Shown here piece after piece: positions 2,679-29,601 of a stretch of 64,000 bases of DNA. The translations under genes were made by a program, and so were the position numbers. The notes beneath the pieces are model-generated. The model made no database searches. It was not told the origin of the DNA and was given only the letters and a program-made list of their open reading frames with translations. The DNA lies in assembly GCA_000004985.1 (NCBI GenBank), contig GG738887.1. The stretch is one strand, 5' to 3'. The stretch is from Naegleria gruberi (lineage: Eukaryota). How positions within the stretch are numbered: the stretch's first letter is position 1; every line of letters begins with the position of its first letter.

Positions 2679-5600
2679 ATGAATATGAGGATTCTTCTCT
2701 TCCTTCTCTTATTGGCACTTCTCTCCCCAAGTATTTCCTCCACCTCATCATCATCATCATCATCAACACTCCTTAATCGCATGTGTAGTAGTGATGATAG
2801 AGCTCCCTCTTTCAATCAGAGAGATTTGTGTTCAGCATCAAATAATTCAATGATTACTCCCTCCTGGTGCACTCGTCATAATCCATTCTCTTCGGTTCCT
2901 TATTTATTTAGTGATAATAACTTTCCGAGTTGGTTAAATGTTGAGGATGGAGCCATTTGTAATACGGCCAATCCCTACGTGTTCAGTTTTATTAATGGAA
3001 CAATTAGATATTCTGCTCCGTATGCTCTCGATGGAAATGCACAAGTATTGCCATCATCATCTTCATCTTCATTGAGTTATTCTGCAATGATTTCACCAAG
3101 AGACAAGTGTAGATTTATATCAAAGATTAATACGATTGAGTTTAGTGGTGAATTTGGATTCAATAGTAGTACTACGATTGAAGCTAAGAGATATCTGGTT
3201 TTGGGATTAGTTTCTGGACAAATTATTCTAATGAATTTCAATAAGGATGATGAGATTTACTTGTTGGGAAATACTGAAGATAAGACAAATATTAGAACAT
3301 TGGAAACTTTGACAAATGGTACTGATTTATATGTTTCGACTGTTTCATTTGGTAATTCAGTTTCTCTATTTTATGGAAATTCTTCAAATATTGCTTCTAT
3401 TCAACGTTGTGGAAACATTTTACAATTTGAATCGAGAAATCAATTTCCACCAGATGTCAAATTAATTACTCACGATGGAAAAATATACGCCTCTCTCATT
3501 GTTTACAATAGTACCGAAATGTGCTATTTCATTTACTTTTATCAACTAGATGGTTGCTCATTCACAAAACAATTCCAGTACAAGGTTAAGGAAAAGTGGG
3601 AATCTAATCTGAAATTCAAAATTTCCACTCAAGTTGGTGGATTTGACAATGTTCTCACCACTAACAATTTTGTATATTCGAGAACTATACTCCAATTCTC
3701 CACAAGAAAACATGTGAAAATCATTGAAATGACCACACAAGATATTGAAATGGATCTGAGTACCAATGACAATTCCACATTTTATGTTGCCACTGATGAG
3801 GAAGAAATTACAGCATCTACCATAGCATATGAATACATTAGAAGGATTGACTTTACAAAATCCTCATGCGCCAAAATTTATGCCAACCCAGCTCAAGGTG
3901 CAAACTTGATTCTTTCACTCAAGAGGAGAAATAGCAATTATTTGAAAGCAAGAAATTTATTAGAGTTTGGAAATTATCCATTCTATAGATATTCGAATAG
4001 AACTTATAATAATCCTGTTGGAAGAACAGTTGAGTGCAATGTTGCTGATGGTACATTTTATGATGCTTTAACACAGAGTTGTACTCATGCTTTTGAGGTA
4101 GAGAATGTGATTGGAGACATTTCTATTGGAGAAGAAATTCAAGAGCTTTCGAGTAGATTCCATGATGCTCCACTCAATTATTCACAATACTTTGAAGTTG
4201 ATTTGACTGAAAAACTTGACACCAAAGATATTTGTAATAATATTGCTCAATTTCCAGCACTTGCTTCCTTATGTGAAGAAAATTTAAATCAAACAGAGTG
4301 TGCATTTGATGCATTTACCATGTTTGGAAACAAGTTCCTTCCTAAAATATTAGCAGATTTTTGGGTAAATCAAATTTACATTTCTAAAACTGGAAAGGAG
4401 GTTTTGGTTTATGGTTTACAACAAGAAATGTGTTCACTCAATGGTCTTTATATGGACAATTATAATACGATTAGTTTAATGGGAGAATCTACATATATGG
4501 ATATCACAAGGAATGCTCAACACATGTTTGTAACAGTGTCCAGAGAACGATGGGAGTTACAATCCCTTACCAGATTTTACAATATTTGTAAACAATTAGA
4601 AGTAGATCCAGAAGATCCATTTTTGAAACCATTTGCTGAGCAATGTAAGGCAAATACACCTTCTCCAGTCACTCTTAATCAATTTGGACAATACACCTCA
4701 AGTTGTTTCAGTGGAATGAGTTGCCCATCTCTAAAACATGTGGAAATTGATATTATACCTGAAGGATTTTACACAACCAGACCAAATGTTGTCAAAGAAT
4801 GTGAGGAAAAATACTTTTGCTTACAGGGTGTGAGACAGCCATGTCCAATTGGATTTTATTGCCCAAACAAGGGAATGACTAAACCATTGCCATGTAAATT
4901 CTCCACTTCACATAATTTACACAAACGAGGTCTTTCATGGGAGGAACCAAAGGGATCAGATACTTGCTACTCACAAGCCAACAGTTTACCTCAACCTTGT
5001 TTGAATGGTACTCTATGTATTACACCTTATTTTCCACCTATTCCTATTTCTCCTGGTCTTTATTTGGAAGGAAACAAGATTAAAGAATGTCAATTGGGAG
5101 ATTATTGTAATTTGGGAAGATATATAGGTGAAAATCAAAATAGCTCAATATTGGCATGTCCTGAAAACACCTATTGTGAAGAACCCTCTACAATGGAACC
5201 TTCATTGTGTATTCCAGATGAAAAGTTATCATTATATTGCCCACCTGGAACTACATTCAGAAGACCATGTAATAAGGGATTCTATTGCCCAAAGCCAAGT
5301 GTTGAAGTTCCTTGTAAATTGACTCAATATTGTGAGGAGGGATCCTATATTCCTGAAACATGTCCAGCTGGTTATTACTGTCCATCACCATCTGAGAAGT
5401 TGATTTGTCCAAAGGGATTTTATTGTGTTGTTGGCAGTGTTTATCCTACCAATTGTCCGACATTTAGTATTTGTCCAGAGGGAACTAAGGCCTATGAAGA
5501 TTATGCTCTTGGTGTCTTGATTGACATTTTAATTATCATGGGAGTAATTTTGACATTTAAAATTTATTCGTGGACTTCTAATTGTTATATTCGATATAAG

Positions 5601-7731
5601 GCAAAGAAACTCAAAAACCAACAAGATTTGGAATTACTAACCATAGATGAAAATGATGCTGAATATATTGTTGTGGAACAGAAAACTCAAAAATTGACAC
5701 TTTCACAATGTATGCAAGGACTTTACAAGGACATTGGAGTGGAAATTTCATTTGAGGATTTGTCAGTTGACTTGAAAACAAGTAACAGAAGAATTTTGCA
5801 TAATCTTAATGGTAAATTTGGCGCTGGTAGATTGACCTGTATTATGGGTCCCAGTGGAAGTGGTAAGACCACCCTATTATCAGCCATTAGTGGTAAAGCA
5901 TCCTATGCCAACATTTCAGGTTCTATCAGAATTAACGGAGAAATATCATCCATGAAGAAATTCAAAAATATTTGTGCATTTGTACAACAAGAAGATTGCA
6001 TGCACAGAGAGTTGACTGTGGAAGAGTGTATTTATTTCAGTGCTAGAACAAGATTGGCCTCTCAAGTGAGCCAGAAAACTGTGGAATCCATAGTGAATGG
6101 AGTGATTCAAATATTGGACTTGGAAAATGTGAGACATTCTGTAATTGGAGATGAGAATAAGAGAGGAATATCTGGTGGTCAGAGAAAGAGGGTCAGTATT
6201 GCTATGGAGCTAGTAGCTTGTCCTTATGTTTTATTTTGTAAGTTTTAACATTTTCGAAAATGAAAGACTTATTAATTTTTCAAATATAGTGGACGAACCT
6301 ACATCTAGTCTCGATGCATACAGTAGCTTTGAAGTGTCTAAGGCAATGAAAGATATTGCCTCGAGTGGAATTACAGTTGTTGCAGTTTTGCATCAGCCAA
6401 GATTTGAAATTTTTGAAATGTTTGACGATGTGGTCTTGCTTGGAAATGGAGGTAGGATTGTGTATATGGGACCTTCCTCTGATGCTTTGCCTTACTTTGA
6501 GGAGAAACTCAATTTGGAGCCACCACCAAGAGTGAATCCGAGTGATTTCTTTTTGGATGCAATTTATGATCCTAAATTGGCATATGAATCACAGAAAAAG
6601 ATTAACGGAAAACAAGTTCAACAATATACATGCAAGGAAATGTTTGATGTTTGGGAAAATAATTATAAGAAACTTGACGAATTTAATGGAACCGATTTTT
6701 CCAAATTAGTGATGGAAGAGAAGGCAAAATCTCAGAATCCTCTCATTCATTTCTACATGAACATTAATAGATCATTCCTATTGAAGATTAGAAACATTTT
6801 TGGATTTTTCATGGATTGCCTATTGGTATACGTTGCTGGACTAGCTCTTGGATTGACTTTCCTCAAAGATGCCTATGTTGGACCTCTTCCTGAAGACATG
6901 ATTGACTCGTGTCCAGCAGCCATGAGAAAAATCTGTGAATATCCACTCAACAATCCAATCATCAACATGGCAAGTACCATTCCACTTGCTTTAGGATTGT
7001 GTGCAGGTATGTCCTCACTGACAACATTCGGTTCCAGACAAGAACAATTAATTTTCAAAAAGGAAAGAGAATCTGGACTCTCAGTTCTTGCCTATTTCAG
7101 TTCTAAAATGTTGGAACAATTGCCAAACATTCTTCTTGGACCAATTGTCTTTCTTTCCATTTTCTTTTCACTCTACTCTCCAAGAGCAACATTTGGAGAA
7201 TATTATTTGGTTCTCTTTTTAATGCATTTCACAACATTTGGATTGGGAAGTTTGGTGAGTGTTGTTGTACCTTTGGATTTGATTCAATTGGCAACTGCAG
7301 TTTCAATTCTAGTTTCTCAATTGGTTAGTGGTTCTAAACCAACTCTTCCACAAATGAAAAAGATTATTCCACCTCTGTTTTGGATTAGTTGCATTTCGTA
7401 TATTCGATATGCCCAGGAAGCACTTTACCTCATTGAAATCAAATATTATAAGGACATTTTTGACATTAGTTCATCATTGGAAATGTTTGATTATCATTTA
7501 GAGGATTTGGATTATTGTATCTTTATGATTCCAGTCTTTGGAATTGTTTTCAGATTATTAACATTGATAGTTTTGTATCAGAAGAGCGACGATTCATTGT
7601 GGAATACTTGTTTAATGTTTATTTCTTATTATTCGAATTTTGATCATTTTAAAACTGGCATGGTTTCAATGTGGAGAAGAATACAAATGGTAATGATATG
7701 GAAAGGTCATGAAAAAGAAGGATTATTGTAA
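2679..7731 (+). CDS. ABC transporter, G-family-like half transporter (NBD-TMD) with an N-terminal ~920-aa Cys-rich extracellular domain, two exons
   Basis: The CDS is join(2679..6237,6290..7731). It opens with a signal peptide MNMRILLFLLLLALLSPSIS and a poly-Ser tract from (TCA)7. A long N-glycosylation-rich ectodomain carries CP-x-G-[FY]-YC repeats such as CPIGFYCPNKG, CNKGFYCPKPS and CPAGYYCPSPSEKLICPKGFYC. A predicted TM helix GVLIDILIIMGVILTFKIY precedes the NBD. The NBD has Walker A GPSGSGKTTLL and the ABC signature ISGGQRKRVSIAMEL. Splicing the 52-nt intron restores the canonical Walker B reading ..YVLF-L-DEPTSSLD. An H-loop VLHQP follows, then a multi-helix hydrophobic domain in exon 2. 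Stop is TAA at 7729-7731. Confidence 0.8.
2745..2765 (+). repeat. (TCA)7 trinucleotide repeat encoding poly-Ser in the ABC transporter signal/linker region
   Basis: The repeat tcatcatcatcatcatcatca is read directly from the sequence; in frame it encodes SSSSSSS. Confidence 0.9.
6238..6289 (+). other. Intron (52 nt, GTAAGT...ATAG) of the ABC transporter gene
   Basis: The donor is gtaagt at 6238-6243 and the acceptor is atag ending at 6289, with AT-rich content between. Without splicing the frame hits a stop at 6246-6248 and the Walker B motif is lost. With splicing the LDEPTSSLD motif is continuous and in frame. Confidence 0.8.
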
Positions 7732-9070: not shown

Positions 9071-9313
9071 ATTGTTTTTGAAATTTTTAATTGAAAATCC
9101 CAAATATTACAATTCTTCTGATTCTCATTTAAATTCATTCGTATCTTATTCAATTTTCAGAATGTCAAAGGAGTTTTTGAAAATTTACTCAATTTCCAAA
9201 AACAACTTCCTTACTCTTTTTCATTGCATGGAGTTTCAGGAGATTAAACTCCAATCTCCCGCCAAAAACTTAAAGTTCGAGAAAAAACAAATTGAAAAAA
9301 ACCACAAAAAAAA

Positions 9314-15103: not shown

Positions 15104-16783
15104 TTAGTGCATGAGCAGAATGGCTGAATATTCGTGTTCACACCTTTCAAGAAATAATCTTTCTGAATAAATAGTAAAGAATCCATCAGATATAGAGGCT
15201 GCTCTTTGAATCTCTGGATCTGTTCTCAATTTCATAGAGAGTATGTTGATATTATTTCCTGTCTTCTTGACAAACTCCATGGCAAGCTCTTTATCTATCT
15301 CACCATAGTAATTATTTAAACCACCCCTTATAGCTGCAATCAATACATCTCGATCAGATGGAAATAAGTTACGCAACATTGAATAGTCAGAGCCCTTACG
15401 AATTAGTCCCTCAATTGCTAGCTCTTTATCCAATTGACCTGGATACAAAGCACGTAGATCTGATAAAGACAAGCCACTTCTTACAGCCTCTAAAGCAAAA
15501 TTTCTATTGGATAGTAATAGTGCTGGTGGCTCAGCATCTGGTGGACTTTCCAAAAAGTTGGGCATGTCTTTTGGAACAAACAATGCAACAGAACCATTTT
15601 GCTTGACAGCTGCCATAATAATTTCACTGTCTCTCGTTAAACGTGGAGAAACAAACTGATAGCAACATCCGTTCTGTTTGACAAGTTCCAAAACCACCTC
15701 TCTATCATCTTGCAATATTTTCATCAAGTGTAAATGCAGTGGATTGTCTCTGACAGCTGTCAATGCCAAATTTTTATCATTTAACAGATCTGGATGAGCA
15801 TAAGCATACATTTTTGCCTTAACCAAAATATCTACATCTGTTTTCAATCTGTAAGATGCATAATGATATGCTTGATTGTCATTCTCCAAGGCCAACAATA
15901 CAATTTCCTTGTTATCTTTAATTTCTTTCGAAGCATAATTGAGAGAAGTTCCTTTTCTAGTAATTGCCCTTGTTACCACTCTCAAATCCCCCTTCAGTTC
16001 TTGGCTTGCAAACTCGAGTGCATCTGGATTCTGATTAATTGCCAAGTTGACAATTTTCTTATTATTTTTCAATTCAACAGATGCATATTGCAAACCTTTT
16101 CCATAAACCTTTACAATTTCTGTAAGTACATCAGGATTCGATCCATAATTCTTTAAAATTTGATCCAAATACCTTGTATCTGTCCATTCCTTCACACTAA
16201 ACTCTCCTCTATTAAACAAATCCAAAACAAATGCAATATCCTCCTCTCCATACTTATTGTGCATAATTCCACTCAATTTTCCCTTTTCATTTGCAATATC
16301 ATTCAAATACTTTTCAAATCCCTCAACACTTCTCAATTGTCCATAATCTTTCAAACTGGGATTATAAATCTTCCTCATAATTGCTCTCATCACCAAAGCA
16401 TCTCTCAAAACCTCTCGAGGTAATATCTGAATAATTGTCTCTATCGATAACTTGACCAAATTCCTCATATAATCAATTACACAATCTCTGTGCTTCATAA
16501 ACTCAATCGGAATAAAATCATTATTTGTTTTAAATTCCTTCTTACGATCCAATCGGAGATGAATTCGTTGAAACCACTTGACTCTTCCTTTCTGTTGATT
16601 TTCAAATTTTGATTTTAATTTTAAATATAAATGATGAAGATGATCATGATGATGATTATTAATATTGGAATGATGATCGGAGAGAATTAGAATGACAGCA
16701 TCACGATGATGATAAGAAGCAGGAGGAGCAGTTGCTTTTGTACCTTTTCTAATTGTTGTTTTTTTGCTTTTGTTTGTAAGCAT
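15104..16783 (-). CDS. DUF4116-repeat protein
   Basis: ATG is at 16781-16783 and the 559-aa ORF ends at TGA 15104-15106. The N-terminus is His/Asn-rich low complexity. It is followed by tandem ~35-aa repeats of the DUF4116 type: LQYASVELKNNKKIVNLAINQNPDAL, EFASQELKGDLRVVTRAI, LNYASKEIKDNKEIVLLALENDNQAYHYASYRLKTDVDIL, LELVKQNGCCYQFVSPRLTRDSEIIMAAVKQNGSVALFV. Confidence 0.6.
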   Translation of the reverse strand: MLTNKSKKTTIRKGTKATAPPASYHHRDAVILILSDHHSNINNHHHDHLHHLYLKLKSKFENQQKGRVKWFQRIHLRLDRKKEFKTNNDFIPIEFMKHRDCVIDYMRNLVKLSIETIIQILPREVLRDALVMRAIMRKIYNPSLKDYGQLRSVEGFEKYLNDIANEKGKLSGIMHNKYGEEDIAFVLDLFNRGEFSVKEWTDTRYLDQILKNYGSNPDVLTEIVKVYGKGLQYASVELKNNKKIVNLAINQNPDALEFASQELKGDLRVVTRAITRKGTSLNYASKEIKDNKEIVLLALENDNQAYHYASYRLKTDVDILVKAKMYAYAHPDLLNDKNLALTAVRDNPLHLHLMKILQDDREVVLELVKQNGCCYQFVSPRLTRDSEIIMAAVKQNGSVALFVPKDMPNFLESPPDAEPPALLLSNRNFALEAVRSGLSLSDLRALYPGQLDKELAIEGLIRKGSDYSMLRNLFPSDRDVLIAAIRGGLNNYYGEIDKELAMEFVKKTGNNINILSMKLRTDPEIQRAASISDGFFTIYSERLFLERCEHEYSAILLMH

Positions 16784-17025
16784 TAGTAATTAGTAAAAGA
16801 AAATTTGATTAAAGTATTGGCGGGAAAGTTAATGTAAAGATATTTTTTTTGTGAATGGTAAATATCCCGCTAAACACTTACTGTCAAAGCGTGCTGGTAC
16901 TTTGACGATTTTGCGTCAAGCTATTTTCGTCAAACAAGCGAAAAGTTGTCTTAGCAGGAGGGAACTTGGAAATTTTTCCAATTTCAAATAACAAATAAAT
17001 TTCCAAGTCAATAAATTTCAATTTA

Positions 17026-17721
17026 TTAAAAGTTTTGATATGCATAATAATGCACAGGAATATATTTCTCTTCATCAGGGAGTTTGACAACAACACATGG
17101 GAGCATTTCAAATGCTTCACTTCTACTAATCTCCCTTGTCTTATTGGTGGTGTTGGAAATTAAGGTAATCTCATTAAAATCTTTTGAGAAAGATGCCACT
17201 TTGAAAACTTCGTTCGTTTTGATATCCTTGATACAATCTAATTCCTTTCTTACAACGTAGTGACCAACTATACATTCAGAGGCAATAAGAGGTTCATTTA
17301 AATCCATTAAATCACATAATTGGCACATATCAAAGTACATGATTGAATATCGAGCAGAATTTGAACAAACGTAAGTCTTTGAGAGTGTGAAATTGAGTCC
17401 TTCTCCAATAAAAGCAGAATTTACACCAAGAGGGCCGTACATTCTACAAGAATTGACTAACTCAGTACAAATATGAAAGTTTGGTGTTGCTTTCTTTTCT
17501 CCAACCACTTTCTGATAATCAATTAACACTTGAAACAATTCAACCTCAATGTCTCCTAATTTGGATAACTGAAATGAGTCTGTCAGCTTATCAATTATAG
17601 AGGCAAATCTATGAATTATTTCAACCTTTGATTCTATTTCCTTAAATCCTTCGATATGTGTAAACAGCTCTAAATAATGATGACAGATCATGTAAATTTC
17701 AATTGCCTTTAGACTGTTCAT
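17026..17721 (-). CDS. Hypothetical protein (231-aa ORF), unknown family; possibly the 3-prime part of a disrupted longer gene
   Basis: This is a long open frame with ATG at 17719-17721 and a stop at 17026-17028. Its upstream minus-strand frame shows that an adjacent ORF in another frame (17744..17992) overlaps it by ~35 nt. That pattern suggests a frameshift or an unrecognised short intron rather than two genes. I recognise no family motifs. Confidence 0.4.
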   Translation of the reverse strand: MNSLKAIEIYMICHHYLELFTHIEGFKEIESKVEIIHRFASIIDKLTDSFQLSKLGDIEVELFQVLIDYQKVVGEKKATPNFHICTELVNSCRMYGPLGVNSAFIGEGLNFTLSKTYVCSNSARYSIMYFDMCQLCDLMDLNEPLIASECIVGHYVVRKELDCIKDIKTNEVFKVASFSKDFNEITLISNTTNKTREISRSEAFEMLPCVVVKLPDEEKYIPVHYYAYQNF

Positions 17722-17743
17722 AATCTGGCCATTTGTGGTCTTT

Positions 17744-17992
17744 CTAGGATGCTTGTGAAGGAATGATGGATACTTTTATTTCAGAAACAATGTCAAATCT
17801 TTCCCAGTATTGAACTGGGATCATTTTCATCATTTCTTGGAAAACTCCTTCATATAATACATGCATTGAATCATAGCAACAAATATCTGATGGTGATGGA
17901 TTCCAATCTTGATCCAAAATTGGTGAAATTGATTTCAACCCTTGATCAAAATTCCCTTTTTGAATGTGATTTTTCCAATACTCTTTATCTCT
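17744..17992 (-). pseudogene. Open frame fragment without ATG start, possibly a frameshifted 5-prime part of the downstream ORF or a decayed element
   Basis: The track's start at 17938 is TTG. The frame is open upstream to a stop at 17993-17995 and the only ATG is internal (..CCYDSMHVLYEGV..). It ends at TAG 17744-17746 while the next ORF's frame is already open in a different phase. Confidence 0.25.
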
Positions 17993-18023
17993 AAAGGTGC
18001 AAGATTAATTGTATCATATTTAG

Positions 18024-18650
18024 GGTGTATTCTTATTGGGTATCGAGTTTGTTTCAAAGATTTTGAATTTTCTTTGGTTGATTCTATATCAACACTTTAC
18101 AGATTCTGAACCACTTGTTCAGTTTTCAAGTCAGAAATCTACAAGCAAGCCAAAGTCTTCTACCAAGAATGCTTCTTCTTACAATGAACCTTCCAACAAG
18201 AAGGCTTCTTCAAGCAATGATGATTCAAATGAAGTTCCGGAATCATTTGCAAATTCTGCATTTTTGAAACACTATAATGATTTAGTTGATGAGAATGAAA
18301 GAATTAAGAAAGAATTGGCTAGATATAAACAGGCAGTCAGAAATATGAATGAAATGATTAATCAAATGGTGAGCTGTTTAGATGAGTATCAAGATGTCTT
18401 TGCATTGGGAGACTCTATTGTGCATCATGATGATAAAACCATTGTGCTCACCCATAAAGAGATAGCAAAGATTTGTGAATTAGGTGAGAAAACCTCTCAA
18501 ATCATACATGTTTGCTCAACCTACTTTGAAAAGTCAATTACAAAGCACAACCAAGATGAAAGAAAGCTATTGTTTAAGATAATATTTGATGCAATGGGTT
18601 GGAAAATAAGCAAACACAAGAACAAACTCAGTAAATACAGAGGTCTTTAG
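18024..18650 (+). CDS. Hypothetical Ser-rich / coiled-coil protein fragment lacking an in-window ATG start
   Basis: The track's start at 18036 is TTG. The frame opens at 18024 after TAG 18021-18023, and the first ATG is about 100 codons downstream. The coding-like composition includes a Ser/Lys/Asn-rich N-part and a heptad-like ENERIKKELARYKQAVRNMNEMINQM segment. After the stop TAG 18648-18650, the +1 frame continues as a Lys/Glu-rich open frame to 18849. This suggests a frameshift, sequencing error or missed intron. Confidence 0.35.
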   Translation, partial: GVFLLGIEFVSKILNFLWLILYQHFTDSEPLVQFSSQKSTSKPKSSTKNASSYNEPSNKKASSSNDDSNEVPESFANSAFLKHYNDLVDENERIKKELARYKQAVRNMNEMINQMVSCLDEYQDVFALGDSIVHHDDKTIVLTHKEIAKICELGEKTSQIIHVCSTYFEKSITKHNQDERKLLFKIIFDAMGWKISKHKNKLSKYRGL

Positions 18651-19440
18651 TTCAATTGCAAGCAACCTTAAGAAAAAGAAGGGTGCAAAACAAAATGAAT
18701 CAGTAAAGAAGAAGAAGACAGAACTTGAGGAGACCACCTCAAAAAAGAGAAAAGAAAGAGAGGAAAACAATGATTCTGGATCATCCTCTTGTGAGGAAGA
18801 AACCATTGAAGAGGATTCCACTGATGATATGAGTGATGATGAATGTTGATTGTAAAATGTTGGGTTACTAAATCGTTATTTTTAATAAAAAAATGTCTAC
18901 ACATCAACTCCCTCATCATATCATACAAAACTGTCGGTTAGTACTACAACATTATTTTTACTACAATTTAAAATCATCAGTTTTATTGTTTATTGGTTTG
19001 TTGTATTTAAATTTCTTAATTTCTTAATTTTTTAATTATTGTTGTTAGTTGGATTTATAAAGATTTTATTCTTCGAAATTGGTTTGTTGTATTATTTTCA
19101 TATTATATGATTTTACCTGCTACGGATCATCAAAATTATTCATCACAAGAAATTAGGTAATTTGTTATAATTCAATTTGTGCTAAACAGCACGATTTATA
19201 TGCAAGCAACAATGTAAGTAATTTTGATTTATTATCATTAATTTTGAATGTAACTGAAGAGGTGAGTGATATTTCATCAGTTGGAGTGAGGATGAGGAGT
19301 GTAGATATTTTTTTCGGTTGGAAATTTGGAATGGAAGTGGATCTAATAATAGATGAGTTTGGAACTTGGAAATTTTACAAGATTTTGTAGTAAATAATTG
19401 CTGGAATTTAGTCAATAATTGACAATAATTATTATGAATT

Positions 19441-19700
19441 TTTTGACGTAATTATTGATGTTTTTTCATCAATATTTGATACAAAACATTATTGATTTAT
19501 TATCAATTTTTGACGTCAAAAATTGATAATAAATCATTAAGAATTGACGATAATTCTTGACGTCAATTGCGCGTTAATTTGGAATTTTTCTCCCAACACT
19601 TGTTGACGATTTTATTATGCTTTAAGCATCAATTTTTAACATTTTTCAATAAACTTTATTTCATAATTTTGCAATCTGATACGTTAAAATTTGACGAAAA
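19441..19700. promoter_or_regulatory. Intergenic cluster of TGACG(T) half-sites and CRE palindromes upstream of the 19809 gene
   Basis: Within 260 bp there are TGACGTAA at 19444-19451 and TGACGTCA at 19511-19518. TGACGA at 19545-19550 and TGACGTCA at 19558-19565 together form the dyad aattgacg...cgtcaatt. Further TGACGA sites lie at 19604-19609 and 19692-19697. A regulatory role is inferred; only the motif occurrence is observed. Confidence 0.35.
19496..19533. repeat. Perfect 38-bp palindrome centred on CRE-type TGACGTCA
   Basis: The sequence tttattatcaatttttgacgtcaaaaattgataataaa (19496..19533) equals its own reverse complement, verified base by base. The core TGACGTCA lies at 19511-19518. 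Flanks extend the dyad imperfectly to about 19494..19535. Confidence 0.9.
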
Positions 19701-19808
19701 AATTGTTAAAATTATCATCAAAATAATTTAGCGGGTATTTATTGTAATGCGTTTGAAAAATGATCAAATGTATCACGTTTCCAATATTGTTCAACTTTCC
19801 AATAAAAA

Positions 19809-20369
19809 ATGGACGAATCAACACCTCTCTATAATTTCGGAAATTCTGTGGAAAAAGATGAACGTTCGGAAGATGATGATATTGTCATTCAATTCGTTCA
19901 ATTAATTTCATGTTTATTACTTTCATGTTTTACATTATTTGATTTAGTTTTGGGGATTTGGGGAAGTGTAATTTTTGGAATCTATTCGAAAGGGTCCAAT
20001 CTGATAGATCCAGAGCCATGTAATATGACAACTGCCACTGCTTTAATAATGACATGCTCTGTGTGTTATTTCTCATTCTTTATTTTCAAGATTAGTTTAG
20101 TTTGTTGTCATTGTTTCGGATGTAGAAAGAAAAGGATTTATCTTGTACCAAGCATTTGTTTCTTCTACATTCCTTGTTTAATAATTAATGGAATTTCGTG
20201 TACGATCTTGGCATTCATTGGTGGAAATAGAAAATGTCAAGAAATTCATGTTCAGGAATTCGCATTTTCCATAACAAGCGTAATTCTAATGTCTCTAATT
20301 ATATGTATATGGACTTGTCAAAATTGTTTATTGGGTGGATGTAAATTAGTTGCCGCTAACGAGGATTAA
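19809..20369 (+). CDS. Small Cys-rich four-helix membrane protein (hypothetical)
   Basis: ATG at 19809 follows aaaaaa, and the 186-aa ORF ends at TAA 20367-20369. An acidic N-terminus is followed by four hydrophobic helices (LISCLLLSCFTLFDLVLGIWGSVIFGI, ALIMTCSVCYFSFFIFKISLVCC, LVPSICFFYIPCLIINGISCTILAFIGG, ITSVILMSLIICIWT). There are many Cys residues, including a CCHCFGC cluster in the loop. Confidence 0.5.
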   Translation: MDESTPLYNFGNSVEKDERSEDDDIVIQFVQLISCLLLSCFTLFDLVLGIWGSVIFGIYSKGSNLIDPEPCNMTTATALIMTCSVCYFSFFIFKISLVCCHCFGCRKKRIYLVPSICFFYIPCLIINGISCTILAFIGGNRKCQEIHVQEFAFSITSVILMSLIICIWTCQNCLLGGCKLVAANED

Positions 20370-20875: not shown

Positions 20876-21853
20876 TTACTCGGCACCAATTAACAAATCA
20901 GAGAGCTTGTACTCAATGACAAACTTTTGATTACTCTTCAATGAATCAATCAAGGCCAAGACTGGATTACGGCTCTTCAAAGTTTCAGCATTAGCTTGAG
21001 ACACTTCACCAGTATTTTCCAAATCAGTAGCAGCTTGCTTCTTGGCATTAACCTTAATGAGATATCTGAAACCTAACTTGGTACAGAAAATAGAAGAGAA
21101 GAAGAAGAGAGACATTAAAATACCATAACCATGAACCATTGTACCAATTAAACAGACAAGATTGAGTGCCAAATTGAGAGCCATCATGATTGGAGACTTT
21201 AAGAGCATTGAAATAGTTTCCAAAACTACCAAAATCCAGAAAATAACATGAACAAAAACTGGGAATCTCCATCCATTAGTATCAGCAGCAACCCAAATGA
21301 CACCAATAATTTGTAAGAGAAGTGTCAAGGCCAACAAGTTACACAATGACCCAATCAATGCAGTTGGAGAACGAACACGAGTCTTGAGTTTGTTCAACAT
21401 TTGTCTAAAGGTCGATGTTGGACGCATTCTCATAGTCGAATCTTCTGTAGAAGCTTGAGCCATACCACCATTTCCATCAATAGTAGTTGTTGTGGTTGTA
21501 ATTGTAGTGGTATATGGGAGTTGTTGTTGAATTTGAATTGGTTCGGTAGTTATTGTTGTAGGATAAGGAGTTGCTTGTTGTTGACCAATGAATTGAACTG
21601 GAGGAATTGGTTGATTATTCATTCCGTATGGCATATATGAAGCACCTTGTAAAGTTGGATACATGTGTTGTTGGTGTGGGAGAACCGGTAATTGAACCAT
21701 TGGATTACTTGAAGGCAAAGAAGATGCTTGCAAGACTGGATAAGGAGTTGTCGTTGCTTGTATTGTAGGATTGGATGAAGGAATTGTTGTTGGTAAATTT
21801 GTATTCATCATTTGTTGTGCGTATGGATGTGGTGGAGGTGAAGTAAGAGTCAT
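20876..21853 (-). CDS. Membrane protein, paralog A of a divergent pair (Pro/Gln/Thr-rich N-terminus, 4 predicted TM helices, conserved C-terminal SDLLIGAE)
   Basis: ATG at 21851-21853 is confirmed and the 325-aa ORF ends at TAA 20876-20878. It shares clear collinear similarity with the 22370..23197 protein: AQAS-EDS, LKTRVRSP-x-L-x-SLCN-L-L, H-x-FWIL-V and the identical C-terminal octapeptide SDLLIGAE. Confidence 0.65.
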   Translation of the reverse strand: MTLTSPPPHPYAQQMMNTNLPTTIPSSNPTIQATTTPYPVLQASSLPSSNPMVQLPVLPHQQHMYPTLQGASYMPYGMNNQPIPPVQFIGQQQATPYPTTITTEPIQIQQQLPYTTTITTTTTTIDGNGGMAQASTEDSTMRMRPTSTFRQMLNKLKTRVRSPTALIGSLCNLLALTLLLQIIGVIWVAADTNGWRFPVFVHVIFWILVVLETISMLLKSPIMMALNLALNLVCLIGTMVHGYGILMSLFFFSSIFCTKLGFRYLIKVNAKKQAATDLENTGEVSQANAETLKSRNPVLALIDSLKSNQKFVIEYKLSDLLIGAE

Positions 21854-22369: not shown

Positions 22370-23197
22370 ATGAATAATAATAATGCTACAAATAATAACC
22401 ATGTTCATCCGTACATGATGGCACAACAACAACAACAACAATTTACAAAATCACCTGATGCTCCTCCAATTCAATATCATTCCGGTCTTGCTCAACAACA
22501 ACAACAACCAGTTTTTACCACCTCAAGTCCATATCCAACCTCTACCACCACCACTACCTATACAACTACTATTGAATCAGTGCCACAACAATATCCTACA
22601 AACATGGATAATGTTGCTCAAGCATCTATGGAAGATTCTTCTTTAAAGCTTGTTGGAACTTCTATTGCAAAGCAAATGTGGACTAAATTGAAGAGTAGAG
22701 TACGTTCTCCATACACTCTTGTCTCTTCATTGTGTAACATGTTGTCATTGGCCATGCTTTTTGAATTTATCTTTATCATTGTTGCTTCCTGTCAATATTA
22801 TAACGCCACACCAGCTCATATGCACATTGTCTTTTGGATTTTGTTCGTGGTTCAACCAATTTTCATGATTTTGAAATCACCTTTATTGATGGTTGTTTCC
22901 TTGTTTATGAATTTGGCCATGTTTGTTATGAGTTGTGTTCAAACTGCTGCCTATGGCAAGAATACTGGTATTTCATATGGTGTTTTGGTTGTCATGTTCT
23001 TGTACTCGTGTTTCTTTTCAGTTATTTTGGCTATCAGTTATCTCAAGAAGGTCAACAAGTCAACAGAACAACAAGCAACTCAATCACCAAAAGCTGCTAT
23101 CATGGCTGACATTGTTACCATTACTCAAAATATTAAGCGTTATAGAGAAATGATCAAGGCTTGTAAAATTTCTGATCTCTTAATTGGTGCTGAATAA
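22370..23197 (+). CDS. Membrane protein, paralog B of the divergent pair
   Basis: ATG at 22370 and a 275-aa ORF ending at TAA 23195-23197. The N-terminus has poly-Asn and poly-Gln from (CAA)n. The conserved blocks shared with the 20876..21853 protein are LKSRVRSPYTLVSSLCNMLSL, HIVFWILFV and the terminal SDLLIGAE. The last 8 codons of the two genes differ at 3 synonymous positions (ttg/ctc, gcc/gct), which indicates purifying selection on both copies. Confidence 0.65.
   Translation: MNNNNATNNNHVHPYMMAQQQQQQFTKSPDAPPIQYHSGLAQQQQQPVFTTSSPYPTSTTTTTYTTTIESVPQQYPTNMDNVAQASMEDSSLKLVGTSIAKQMWTKLKSRVRSPYTLVSSLCNMLSLAMLFEFIFIIVASCQYYNATPAHMHIVFWILFVVQPIFMILKSPLLMVVSLFMNLAMFVMSCVQTAAYGKNTGISYGVLVVMFLYSCFFSVILAISYLKKVNKSTEQQATQSPKAAIMADIVTITQNIKRYREMIKACKISDLLIGAE
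22424..22441 (+). repeat. (CAA)6 trinucleotide repeat encoding poly-Gln in paralog B; a second (CAA)5 lies at 22494..22508
   Basis: The repeat caacaacaacaacaacaa is read directly from the sequence; in frame it encodes QQQQQQ. Confidence 0.9.
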
Positions 23198-29185: not shown

Positions 29186-29235
29186 NNNNNNNNNNNNNNN
29201 NNNNNNNNNNNNNNNNNNNNNNNNNNNNNNNNNNN
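29186..29235. other. Assembly gap (50 N)
   Basis: A run of exactly 50 n characters, the conventional placeholder for a gap of unknown size between contigs. Confidence 1.
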
Positions 29236-29601
29236 ACCCATAACCGAATTTGAGGCATGTAGTGTAATTCTAACATCACGATCAGCTCATTACTCTATGA
29301 AGTTTAATCTTTGCATCAAATCTGCTAAATTAACTTTTCAAATTTTAATGAAGAGGTCAGCAAATGTTTTTAAAGTTCCCAAAATGTTTTCAATGTTCAT
29401 TTTCAAAATTTCTTATCTATTTTTAAATATAATGACGAAATTTTCATCATCATTACAAAAAGTATGATGTCAACAACTCCGAAATTCAATGATGAAGACA
29501 CACGGTTTTCATTCATATAAAACCCATTGAACGATATTCTTGAAAAAAACAAGAATTTGCAAACAAGCAATTCAACTAACAATTCTAATAACTCAAACAA
29601 A

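Follow-up and report, generated by a model that had tools for sequence, protein, structure and literature searches.

CRE-Like Palindromes in an Intergenic Region of Naegleria gruberi Are Most Likely Subterminal Repeats of a Defective DNA Transposon

Locus and Question

Why do two copies of TGACGTCA, the octamer known as the cyclic AMP (cAMP)-response element (CRE), stand in palindromes within one short stretch of the Naegleria gruberi genome? We explored this question in a 64,000-base stretch of contig GG738887.1 (assembly GCA_000004985.1), which is called the window in the following. The real sequence of the window amounts to 30,365 bases, with a 51-N assembly gap at 29186-29236, and the remainder (30366-64000) is N padding. 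An earlier note on this DNA suggested a promoter array of cAMP-response elements, bound by CREB/ATF-class proteins, in a dictyostelid genome. The dictyostelid origin has to be given up, because the 186-aa open reading frame (ORF) beside the cluster and its neighbouring ORFs are 100% identical to N. gruberi proteins. As to the sites themselves, we consider it very probable that the TGACGTCA palindromes belong to a subterminal repeat array, carried by a defective cut-and-paste DNA transposon of N. gruberi. The flagged feature is most likely an ordinary one, that is, the subterminal repeat region of a defective transposon.

Ends and Subterminal Arrays of the Window Element

The transposon, hereafter the window element, occupies positions 16866-19735 and is 2,870 bp long. 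It begins with the terminal inverted repeat CCCGCTAAA (16866-16874, plus strand) and ends with its counterpart TTTAGCGGG (19727-19735, plus strand). An exact search of the window showed that these two are the only exact occurrences of the 9-mer, and that they bracket both clusters of the hexamer TTGACG. The trinucleotide TAT can be read directly outside each repeat (16863-16865 and 19736-19738), and the two may be the left and right copies of a 3-bp target-site duplication. CACTA-type termini were not found near the element ends.

We counted the hexamer TTGACG in the window and found 16 occurrences against 5.2 expected, a number that was reached in none of 100 dinucleotide-preserving shuffles. 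ORF-free DNA holds 12 of the 16, and 11 of these 12 make up the clusters at 16902-16933 and 19443-19696; the latter interval alone contains eight, which is half of all occurrences in the window. According to the motif scan, the left (small) subterminal array at 16902-16933 has three TTGACG located 37-68 bp from the terminus, including a dyad TTGACG-N6-CGTCAA. The right (large) subterminal array at 19443-19696 has eight TTGACG in both orientations, located 40-293 bp from the terminus. All 11 TTGACG of the window element lie within 300 bp of its ends, and the intervening 2.5 kb has none. Global alignment of the two arms revealed no extended homology, and only the motifs are common to them.

Two further repeats were observed in the arms. 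The exact 16-mer GGAACTTGGAAATTTT occurs in both, in the same orientation (16961-16976 and 19361-19376), and TTGGAAA-type words recur near it (19318, 19366 and 16966). These may be a second subterminal motif or chance. Because other chance 16-mers occur in the window, for example the pair in coding DNA at 5515 and 13902, GGAACTTGGAAATTTT was given little weight. Inside the right arm, the 16-nt inverted repeat AAAAAAATGTCTACAC / GTGTAGATATTTTTTT (18887-18902 and 19299-19314, 94% complementary) brackets about 400 bp, including a G-richer stretch at 19240-19380. The bracketed DNA may be a nested fragment.

Gene Remnants between the Arrays

The interior of the window element contains the remnants of two genes. 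A transposase remnant was located by tblastn at 17026-18084 on the minus strand. It represents only the C-terminal ~45% of the protein, because the window aligns to residues 429-779 of P0159, a transposase of 786 aa from Naegleria lovaniensis. The match between window positions 18084-17050 (minus strand) and P0159 has an identity of 44-47% (tblastn, E = 3e-69). A paralogous N. gruberi protein, P0003, matches the window with E = 6e-107 in two frames with a stop, and the homology reaches 17944. The remnant is interrupted by a frameshift and an in-frame stop near 17780-17792. Its ORF at 17026-17721 (minus strand) appears in the N. gruberi annotation as a 'predicted protein' of 231 aa and has one N. 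gruberi paralogue, P0003, with 56% identity. Neither the window remnant nor P0003 gave a direct match in Pfam, and a PDB sequence search was uninformative.

The remnant of the second gene lies at 18036-18850 on the plus strand. There is no ATG at the start of the ORF, and the frame changes near 18650. It was recognised by BLASTP against a 506-aa ORF of N. lovaniensis; the similarity is weak and collinear, with E = 0.033 over 118 aa and two additional short collinear patches. Read on the reverse strand, the order of the window element is TTTAGCGGG, large array, second ORF, transposase remnant, small array and CCCGCTAAA.

The N-terminal 430 residues of the transposase are missing from the window copy, as is the start of the second gene. 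Internally deleted, non-autonomous derivatives usually look like this. With its transposase truncated and disrupted, the window copy is not self-mobile. Two annotated N. gruberi 'predicted proteins' in this stretch are fragments of a transposon.

An Intact Relative in N. lovaniensis

We compared three copies of the related element in N. lovaniensis and obtained a length of 7,101 bp; all three have CCCGC as their first and GCGGG as their last bases. Two of the copies are 100% identical over 7,060 bp and the third is 99.2-99.8% identical, and the flanks are unrelated at all loci. A target-site duplication of 2 bp is present around each of the three copies (GA/GA, AT/AT and TT/TT). The N. lovaniensis element is a young mobile element, and the Naegleria transposon family looks recently active in this species.

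The distribution of TTGACG in the intact element follows the pattern described above for the window element. Nine of its 11 hexamers are terminal, with seven in the first ~290 bp and two in the last ~110 bp (P about 1e-8); the interior 6.5 kb contains the other two. The large array of N. lovaniensis includes 33-bp tandem repeats carrying TTGACG, and the repeat number varies between copies. The gene order is large array, 506-aa gene (minus strand), transposase (plus strand) and small array. Accordingly, in both the N. lovaniensis element and the window element the large array stands beside the second gene, and the small array follows the 3' end of the transposase. The sequence context of TTGACG is also common to the two species, with A/T-rich flanks and A, T or C after the G. 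In addition, the 9-mers common to the window arms and the ends of the N. lovaniensis element are about 5-7 times denser there than in control intergenic DNA or the element interior.

Some other observations were made on this family and its surroundings. One N. lovaniensis copy carries a 422-bp insertion resembling a miniature inverted-repeat transposable element (MITE) near its 3' end (L007 12509-12930). Its terminal repeats are TATGGCGGCGC...GCGCCGCCATA, and it has an inner perfect 19-bp inverted repeat, CCTGTCAGATATTCGTCAA / TTGACGAATATCTGACAGG. This insertion has TTGACG, and so it represents a second kind of element with TTGACG in its ends. In N. fowleri, a segment of 52 bp (L006 3250-3301) matches positions 1043-1094 of the N. 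lovaniensis transposon, in the non-coding arm, with 85% identity (E = 2e-8). From this similarity, it is suggested that N. fowleri also holds relics of the transposon family. About 1 kb from the third N. lovaniensis copy there is a gene for an 894-aa Phage_integrase protein, i.e., a tyrosine recombinase (L009 937-3621). It may belong to an element of the Crypton or DIRS kind, and this would hint at a patch rich in repeats.

Transposase Family

An exhaustive HMMER search of 1.84 billion protein representatives yielded a small family of 37 proteins. The placement of this family was reached only through this exhaustive search for longer relatives. The longer members match the Pfam families Transposase_21 ("transposase family tnp2") and DUF4218. 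P0155 scored 31.2 bits against Transposase_21, which is above the cut-off of 28.6. P0159, the closest full-length relative, scored 27.7 bits (E = 1.9e-6), which is just under the cut-off. The DUF4218 matches of P0144, P0145 and P0155 fall in the region that aligns to the window remnant, with scores under the cut-off. The window copy itself is without the N-terminal half in which the Transposase_21 domain lies. A cluster look-up showed that the closest family members are Naegleria proteins. P0159 is annotated in N. lovaniensis as a "transposase domain-containing protein", and identical copies of it exist at two loci.

Judged from these sequence matches, the transposase of the window element family resembles the 'tnp2' transposase (Transposase_21 plus DUF4218) of CACTA/EnSpm-type elements. 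We classed the family as tnp2-like and CMC-related, and not as bona fide CACTA, because its termini are CCCGC...GCGGG and the Pfam score of its nearest full-length member is marginal. Across the relatives the Pfam signal is consistent, but it falls short of a clear-cut match.

Palindromes and Their Possible Origin

The octamer TGACGTCA is present at 19511-19518 and 19558-19565, as had been claimed, and these are its sole copies in the window. Two copies compare with 0.11 expected, and a count of two was reached in none of 100 dinucleotide-preserving shuffles. The four half-sites described earlier were also found, namely TGACGT at 19443 and TGACGA at 19544, 19603 and 19691. The perfect dyad, which had been reported as 38 bp, is real and longer. 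It is a perfect palindrome of 44 bp at 19493-19536, and with one mismatched pair it extends around the same centre to 52 bp (19489-19540). The runner-up perfect palindrome in the window has only 16 bp, and the longest across 200 shuffles has 24 bp. When the dyad was folded as single-stranded DNA, the energy was -17.3 kcal/mol (z = -6.9).

Palindrome and folding analysis of 19489-19540 showed two head-to-head subterminal units, whose overlapping TTGACG hexamers produce the TGACGTCA at 19511-19518. The second TGACGTCA is contained in the dyad AATTGACG-N11-CGTCAATT at 19542-19568, which agrees with the aattgacg..cgtcaatt dyad noticed before. Repeat and dyad scans also revealed an older, degenerate palindrome at 19437-19490, which is 75% complementary, with TTGACGTAAT in one arm and ATTGATG-N6-CATCAAT in its centre. 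A degenerate third copy of the palindrome arm (TTGATTTATTATCA..AATTTTGAATGT) is located at 19224-19251 on the plus strand and has lost the CG of the hexamer; it has an exact 14-mer in common with 19492-19505, and the rest was compared by eye.

All nine dyads of the form TTGAYG-Nx-CRTCAA in the window fall within the two arms of the window element, against a mean of 0.2 in shuffles. CRE spacing is found in two of the nine, and the remainder are spaced by 6, 11 and 18-20 bp. What recurs is not the CRE octamer but TTGACG with A, T or C as the next base. The octamer appears only where two TTGACG units overlap head to head, and palindromes built from the hexamer are confined to the subterminal regions of the transposon family in two species. 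The intact N. lovaniensis relative has TTGACG arrays at its ends and zero TGACGTCA.

The repeated unit is thus TTGACG in an A/T-rich context, present in both orientations in the outermost 300 bp or so at one end and 100 bp or so at the other. Overlapping head-to-head units spell TTGACGTCAA, which includes the 'CRE' octamer. By analogy with TNPA of Spm/En and its subterminal repeats, TTGACG is probably a binding unit for an element-encoded protein: the units would be cis sites bound by the transposase or by the product of the second ORF, and they would mark and pair the ends for excision. The 44-bp dyad probably arose when one unit of about 22-26 bp was recently duplicated on the spot in inverted orientation. 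A recent origin is proposed because the dyad is perfect. A local origin is proposed because of the degenerate arm copy at 19224-19251 and the older dyad directly to the left (19437-19490), and also because the N. lovaniensis arrays vary by tandem duplication.

Host Locus and Neighbouring Genes

The left flanking host gene encodes the DUF4116 repeat protein NAEGRDRAFT_80791 (15104-16783, minus strand; Pfam DUF4116, E = 8.6e-58), which is 100% identical to the N. gruberi protein. Its ATG is 82 bp from the left end of the transposon. The right flanking host gene encodes the orphan 186-aa Cys-rich membrane protein (19809-20369, plus strand), identical at 100% to an N. gruberi predicted protein, with its ATG 73 bp from the right end. 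This protein has no other homologue among 5.8 billion proteins and no Pfam match. No clear orthologue of the DUF4116 gene was found for promoter comparison; the best Naegleria match is 25% identical, and its locus is non-syntenic.

Without the element, the two start codons, which face outwards, would be about 150 bp apart. Similar or shorter gaps separate other pairs of divergent genes in the Naegleria loci examined, e.g., 135 bp and 56 bp. The transposon probably inserted into a short divergent intergenic region (~150 bp) between the DUF4116 and 186-aa genes. The stretch 18851-19808 is ORF-free, but it is not the plain intergenic spacer of the earlier note, since the part up to 19735 lies inside the transposon. 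The small ORFs of 18851-19808 were examined and none is coding-like. Searches with Rfam (E <= 1) and ARAGORN detected no non-coding RNA or tRNA in or near this stretch. A U6-like match at 16643-16740 was dismissed, since it scored 22 bits against a threshold of 44.

A few further features of the window are recorded here. An E2F-like site, TTTCCCGCC, lies on the minus strand at 16818-16828, in the short piece of host DNA between the DUF4116 start codon and the left end of the transposon, and a second one, TTTGGCGGG, lies at 9258-9266. Two paralogous orphan membrane proteins are encoded divergently at 20876-21853 (minus strand) and 22370-23197 (plus strand). Neither has a Pfam match; both have Q/T/P-rich N-termini and the common C-terminal ending ..SDLLIGAE. 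The ABCG-type transporter at 2679-7731 has a very large Cys-rich extracellular N-terminal extension. Its frame is broken at ~6226-6250, in what looks like a short intron, and TTGACGTCGA is found 179 bp upstream of its ATG.

Alternative Explanations

Several observations weigh against the transposon and have to be considered together. A DNA alignment of the arms of the two species is not possible, and what they have in common is the terminal pentamer/9-mer, the hexamer and short words. The N. lovaniensis element has neither the TGACGTCA octamer nor a long perfect palindrome, so the 44-bp dyad is particular to the window copy. Within N. gruberi, the relatives of the family were seen as protein paralogues only (P0003, and P0124 = NAEGRDRAFT_54699). 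The inverted repeats are short, with 9 bp in the window and 5 bp in N. lovaniensis (where the T next to them is found at one end only), and the termini of the three N. lovaniensis copies and of the window element are CCCGC...GCGGG and not CACTA. The possible duplication in the window has 3 bp (TAT), as against 2 bp in the N. lovaniensis copies. Alternatively, TAT/TAT may belong to a longer imperfect inverted repeat, TAAATA(T)CCCGCTAAA, and in AT-rich DNA its chance occurrence would not be unusual. The binding of a protein to TTGACG is argued by analogy. Finally, the terminal repeats stand 73-82 bp upstream of outward-facing ATGs, and a shared promoter grammar would give the same symmetry.

This last point leads to the explanation closest to the earlier proposal. 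The cluster could be a homotypic group of bZIP sites (ATF/CREB- or TGA-type) forming the promoter or enhancer of the 186-aa gene, and a similar module would precede the DUF4116 gene. Both TGACGTCA and the TGACG half-site are well known as targets of bZIP proteins, bZIP genes of N. gruberi have been recovered (PMC4736632), and the array is situated 118-366 bp upstream of the 186-aa ATG. Relative to the outward-facing genes, the motif order is also the same in both arms: TTGACGAAAA comes first, and then TTTAGCGGG-TATTTA about 75-90 nt before the ATG. However, terminal inverted repeats would lead to the same symmetry of the arms. The sites are internal to the transposon, with its terminal inverted repeat on one side and the element genes including the transposase remnant on the other, and the ends of the intact relative bear the same arrays of the hexamer at three genomic sites with unrelated contexts. 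The unit is TTGACG plus A, T or C and not the octamer, and the 44-bp perfect dyad is far larger than a bZIP footprint.

We also considered whether TGACG is a promoter word in Naegleria in general. It showed no consistent intergenic enrichment in four other Naegleria loci (~89 kb in total). The cAMP part of the proposal meets an additional difficulty. The CREB kinase-inducible domain, which connects the CRE with cAMP, is associated with metazoan CREB; in Capsaspora, a unicellular relative, CREB lacks it (PMC4736632). Besides, the 186-aa gene has no orthologue with which conservation could be compared. On the other side, a 690-bp divergent intergenic region of N. lovaniensis contains the canonical extended CRE ATGACGTCAT, an ACGT box and ATGACGTA, with five TGACG (L003 16600-16735), and no transposon signature was seen in this region. 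Therefore, genuine CRE-like or bZIP sites may exist in Naegleria. Taken as the explanation of the window cluster, a bZIP promoter module is very unlikely, and the cAMP-response promoter array of the earlier note does not stand. That a transposon arm was co-opted as a regulatory element of the neighbouring gene is a minority possibility that finds no support here.

The palindrome of 44-52 bp could also be an element in its own right, a tiny foldback or MITE-like one, that inserted into the transposon arm. It is perfect, which implies that it arose recently, and the 422-bp MITE-like insertion with TTGACG inverted repeats in one N. lovaniensis copy provides a precedent. The palindrome has TTA on both sides (19489-19491 and 19537-19539), which is possibly a 3-bp target-site duplication; TTA..TAA can equally be read as the continuation of the dyad in AT-rich DNA. 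An insertion of about 45 bp with no loop would be far below the usual sizes of MITEs, and the degenerate arm copy at 19224-19251, together with the vocabulary of the neighbouring units, points to local duplication. That degenerate copy is the only recurrence of the arm, and no further copy of the palindrome exists in the window. The palindrome 24-mer has no exact match among metagenome contigs. A separate nested insertion is highly improbable. The 20-mer core of the palindrome was also sought in viral contigs, where two phage contigs had an unrelated TTAAATTTTTGACGTCAAAAATTTAA; these were taken as chance.

The earlier note had offered a transposon end or hairpin element, such as a MITE end, as a fallback. 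This was right in kind. It had also held that recurrence in a repeat family would point to a transposon, and such recurrence was found at the level of the element family. We consider it exceedingly improbable that the dyad cluster is host structural or functional DNA (a replication origin, cruciform or recombination site): the hairpin potential is strong (-17.3 kcal/mol, z = -6.9) and several dyads are adjacent in AT-rich DNA, but nothing specific supports this idea, the GC skew is undistinctive at the cluster position, and the transposon anatomy accounts fully for the feature.

With the defective transposon as the preferred explanation, the main value of this analysis is a correction: the apparent "cAMP-response elements" are most likely the end of a dead transposon. 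The lesson is that dense palindromic motifs resembling transcription factor sites beside an orphan ORF should be checked for transposon anatomy before a regulatory story is told. As a by-product, the ends, the target-site duplication and a candidate cis-binding hexamer were defined for a Naegleria DNA transposon family. This could be used in repeat annotation, and it might matter for genetic tools in Naegleria, a genus with few such tools.

A broader idea may be added, which we regard as unlikely. The family could represent a heterolobosean tnp2/CMC-like lineage, with atypical CCCGC termini and a 2-bp duplication, recently active in N. lovaniensis, in which the TTGACG sites coincide with bZIP (TGACG/CRE) recognition sequences, so that insertions could rewire host genes. 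If this were true, insertion into short bidirectional promoters, as at this locus, could place ready-made bZIP-responsive arrays beside host genes.

Comparison with Known Systems

No description of this Naegleria transposon family or of Naegleria promoter motifs was found in the searchable literature; Repbase and Dfam were outside this search. Among known systems, the element works like the CACTA/EnSpm type, by its transposase similarity, its short target-site duplication and its subterminal repeat architecture. CACTA/EnSpm elements (Spm/En, Tam1 and Tgm) likewise have two genes, short target-site duplications (classically 3 bp, compared with 2 bp or possibly 3 bp in the Naegleria elements) and internally deleted, defective derivatives. 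They also have asymmetric subterminal arrays in direct and inverted orientation, comparable to the TTGACG numbers of 3 versus 8 in the window and 7 versus 2 in N. lovaniensis, and their subterminal repeats form palindromes.

The asymmetry is well illustrated by the soybean element Tgmt*, in which one end has 4 subterminal repeats within 159 bp and the opposite end 24 within 732 bp. It has 2 and 12 palindromes at the respective ends, a target-site duplication of 3 bp, a tnp2 transposase and a DNA-binding protein to which the repeats serve as recognition sites (PMC2613891). In CACTA elements the subterminal repeats act as cis-determinants for transposition, and a DNA-binding protein that the element itself encodes recognises them. 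In Spm/En this protein is TNPA, which binds the repeats (PMC2613891).

The Naegleria elements differ from this type in several respects. The termini there are CACTA...TAGTG, or more broadly CACT(A/G)...(C/T)AGTG or at least CA..TG, and CCCGC...GCGGG in Naegleria, and the terminal inverted repeats have 13 bp or more there as against 5-9 bp. The subterminal motif of En-1 has 12 bp, whereas the Naegleria core TTGACG has 6 bp. The host is also different, being a heterolobosean amoeba. The CMCT clade shows target-site duplications of 2-5 bp and mostly CA..TG termini (PMC12730594).

A second comparison can be made with Ac/Ds of the hAT superfamily, and a difference should be stated first: this is another superfamily, in which the target-site duplication is 8 bp long and a hAT dimerisation domain is present, and no hAT signature was seen in the Naegleria proteins. 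In Ac, copies of the hexamer AAACGG lie in both orientations in the outermost 250 bp or so at each end, in unequal numbers, and the transposase binds them.

Finally, CRE and the plant as-1/TGA sites are identical in sequence to the octamer and the TGACG half-site of the window. The Naegleria sites differ from CRE in their transposon-end context, in a conserved unit TTGACG with variable 3' bases, and in a dyad that extends to 44 bp.

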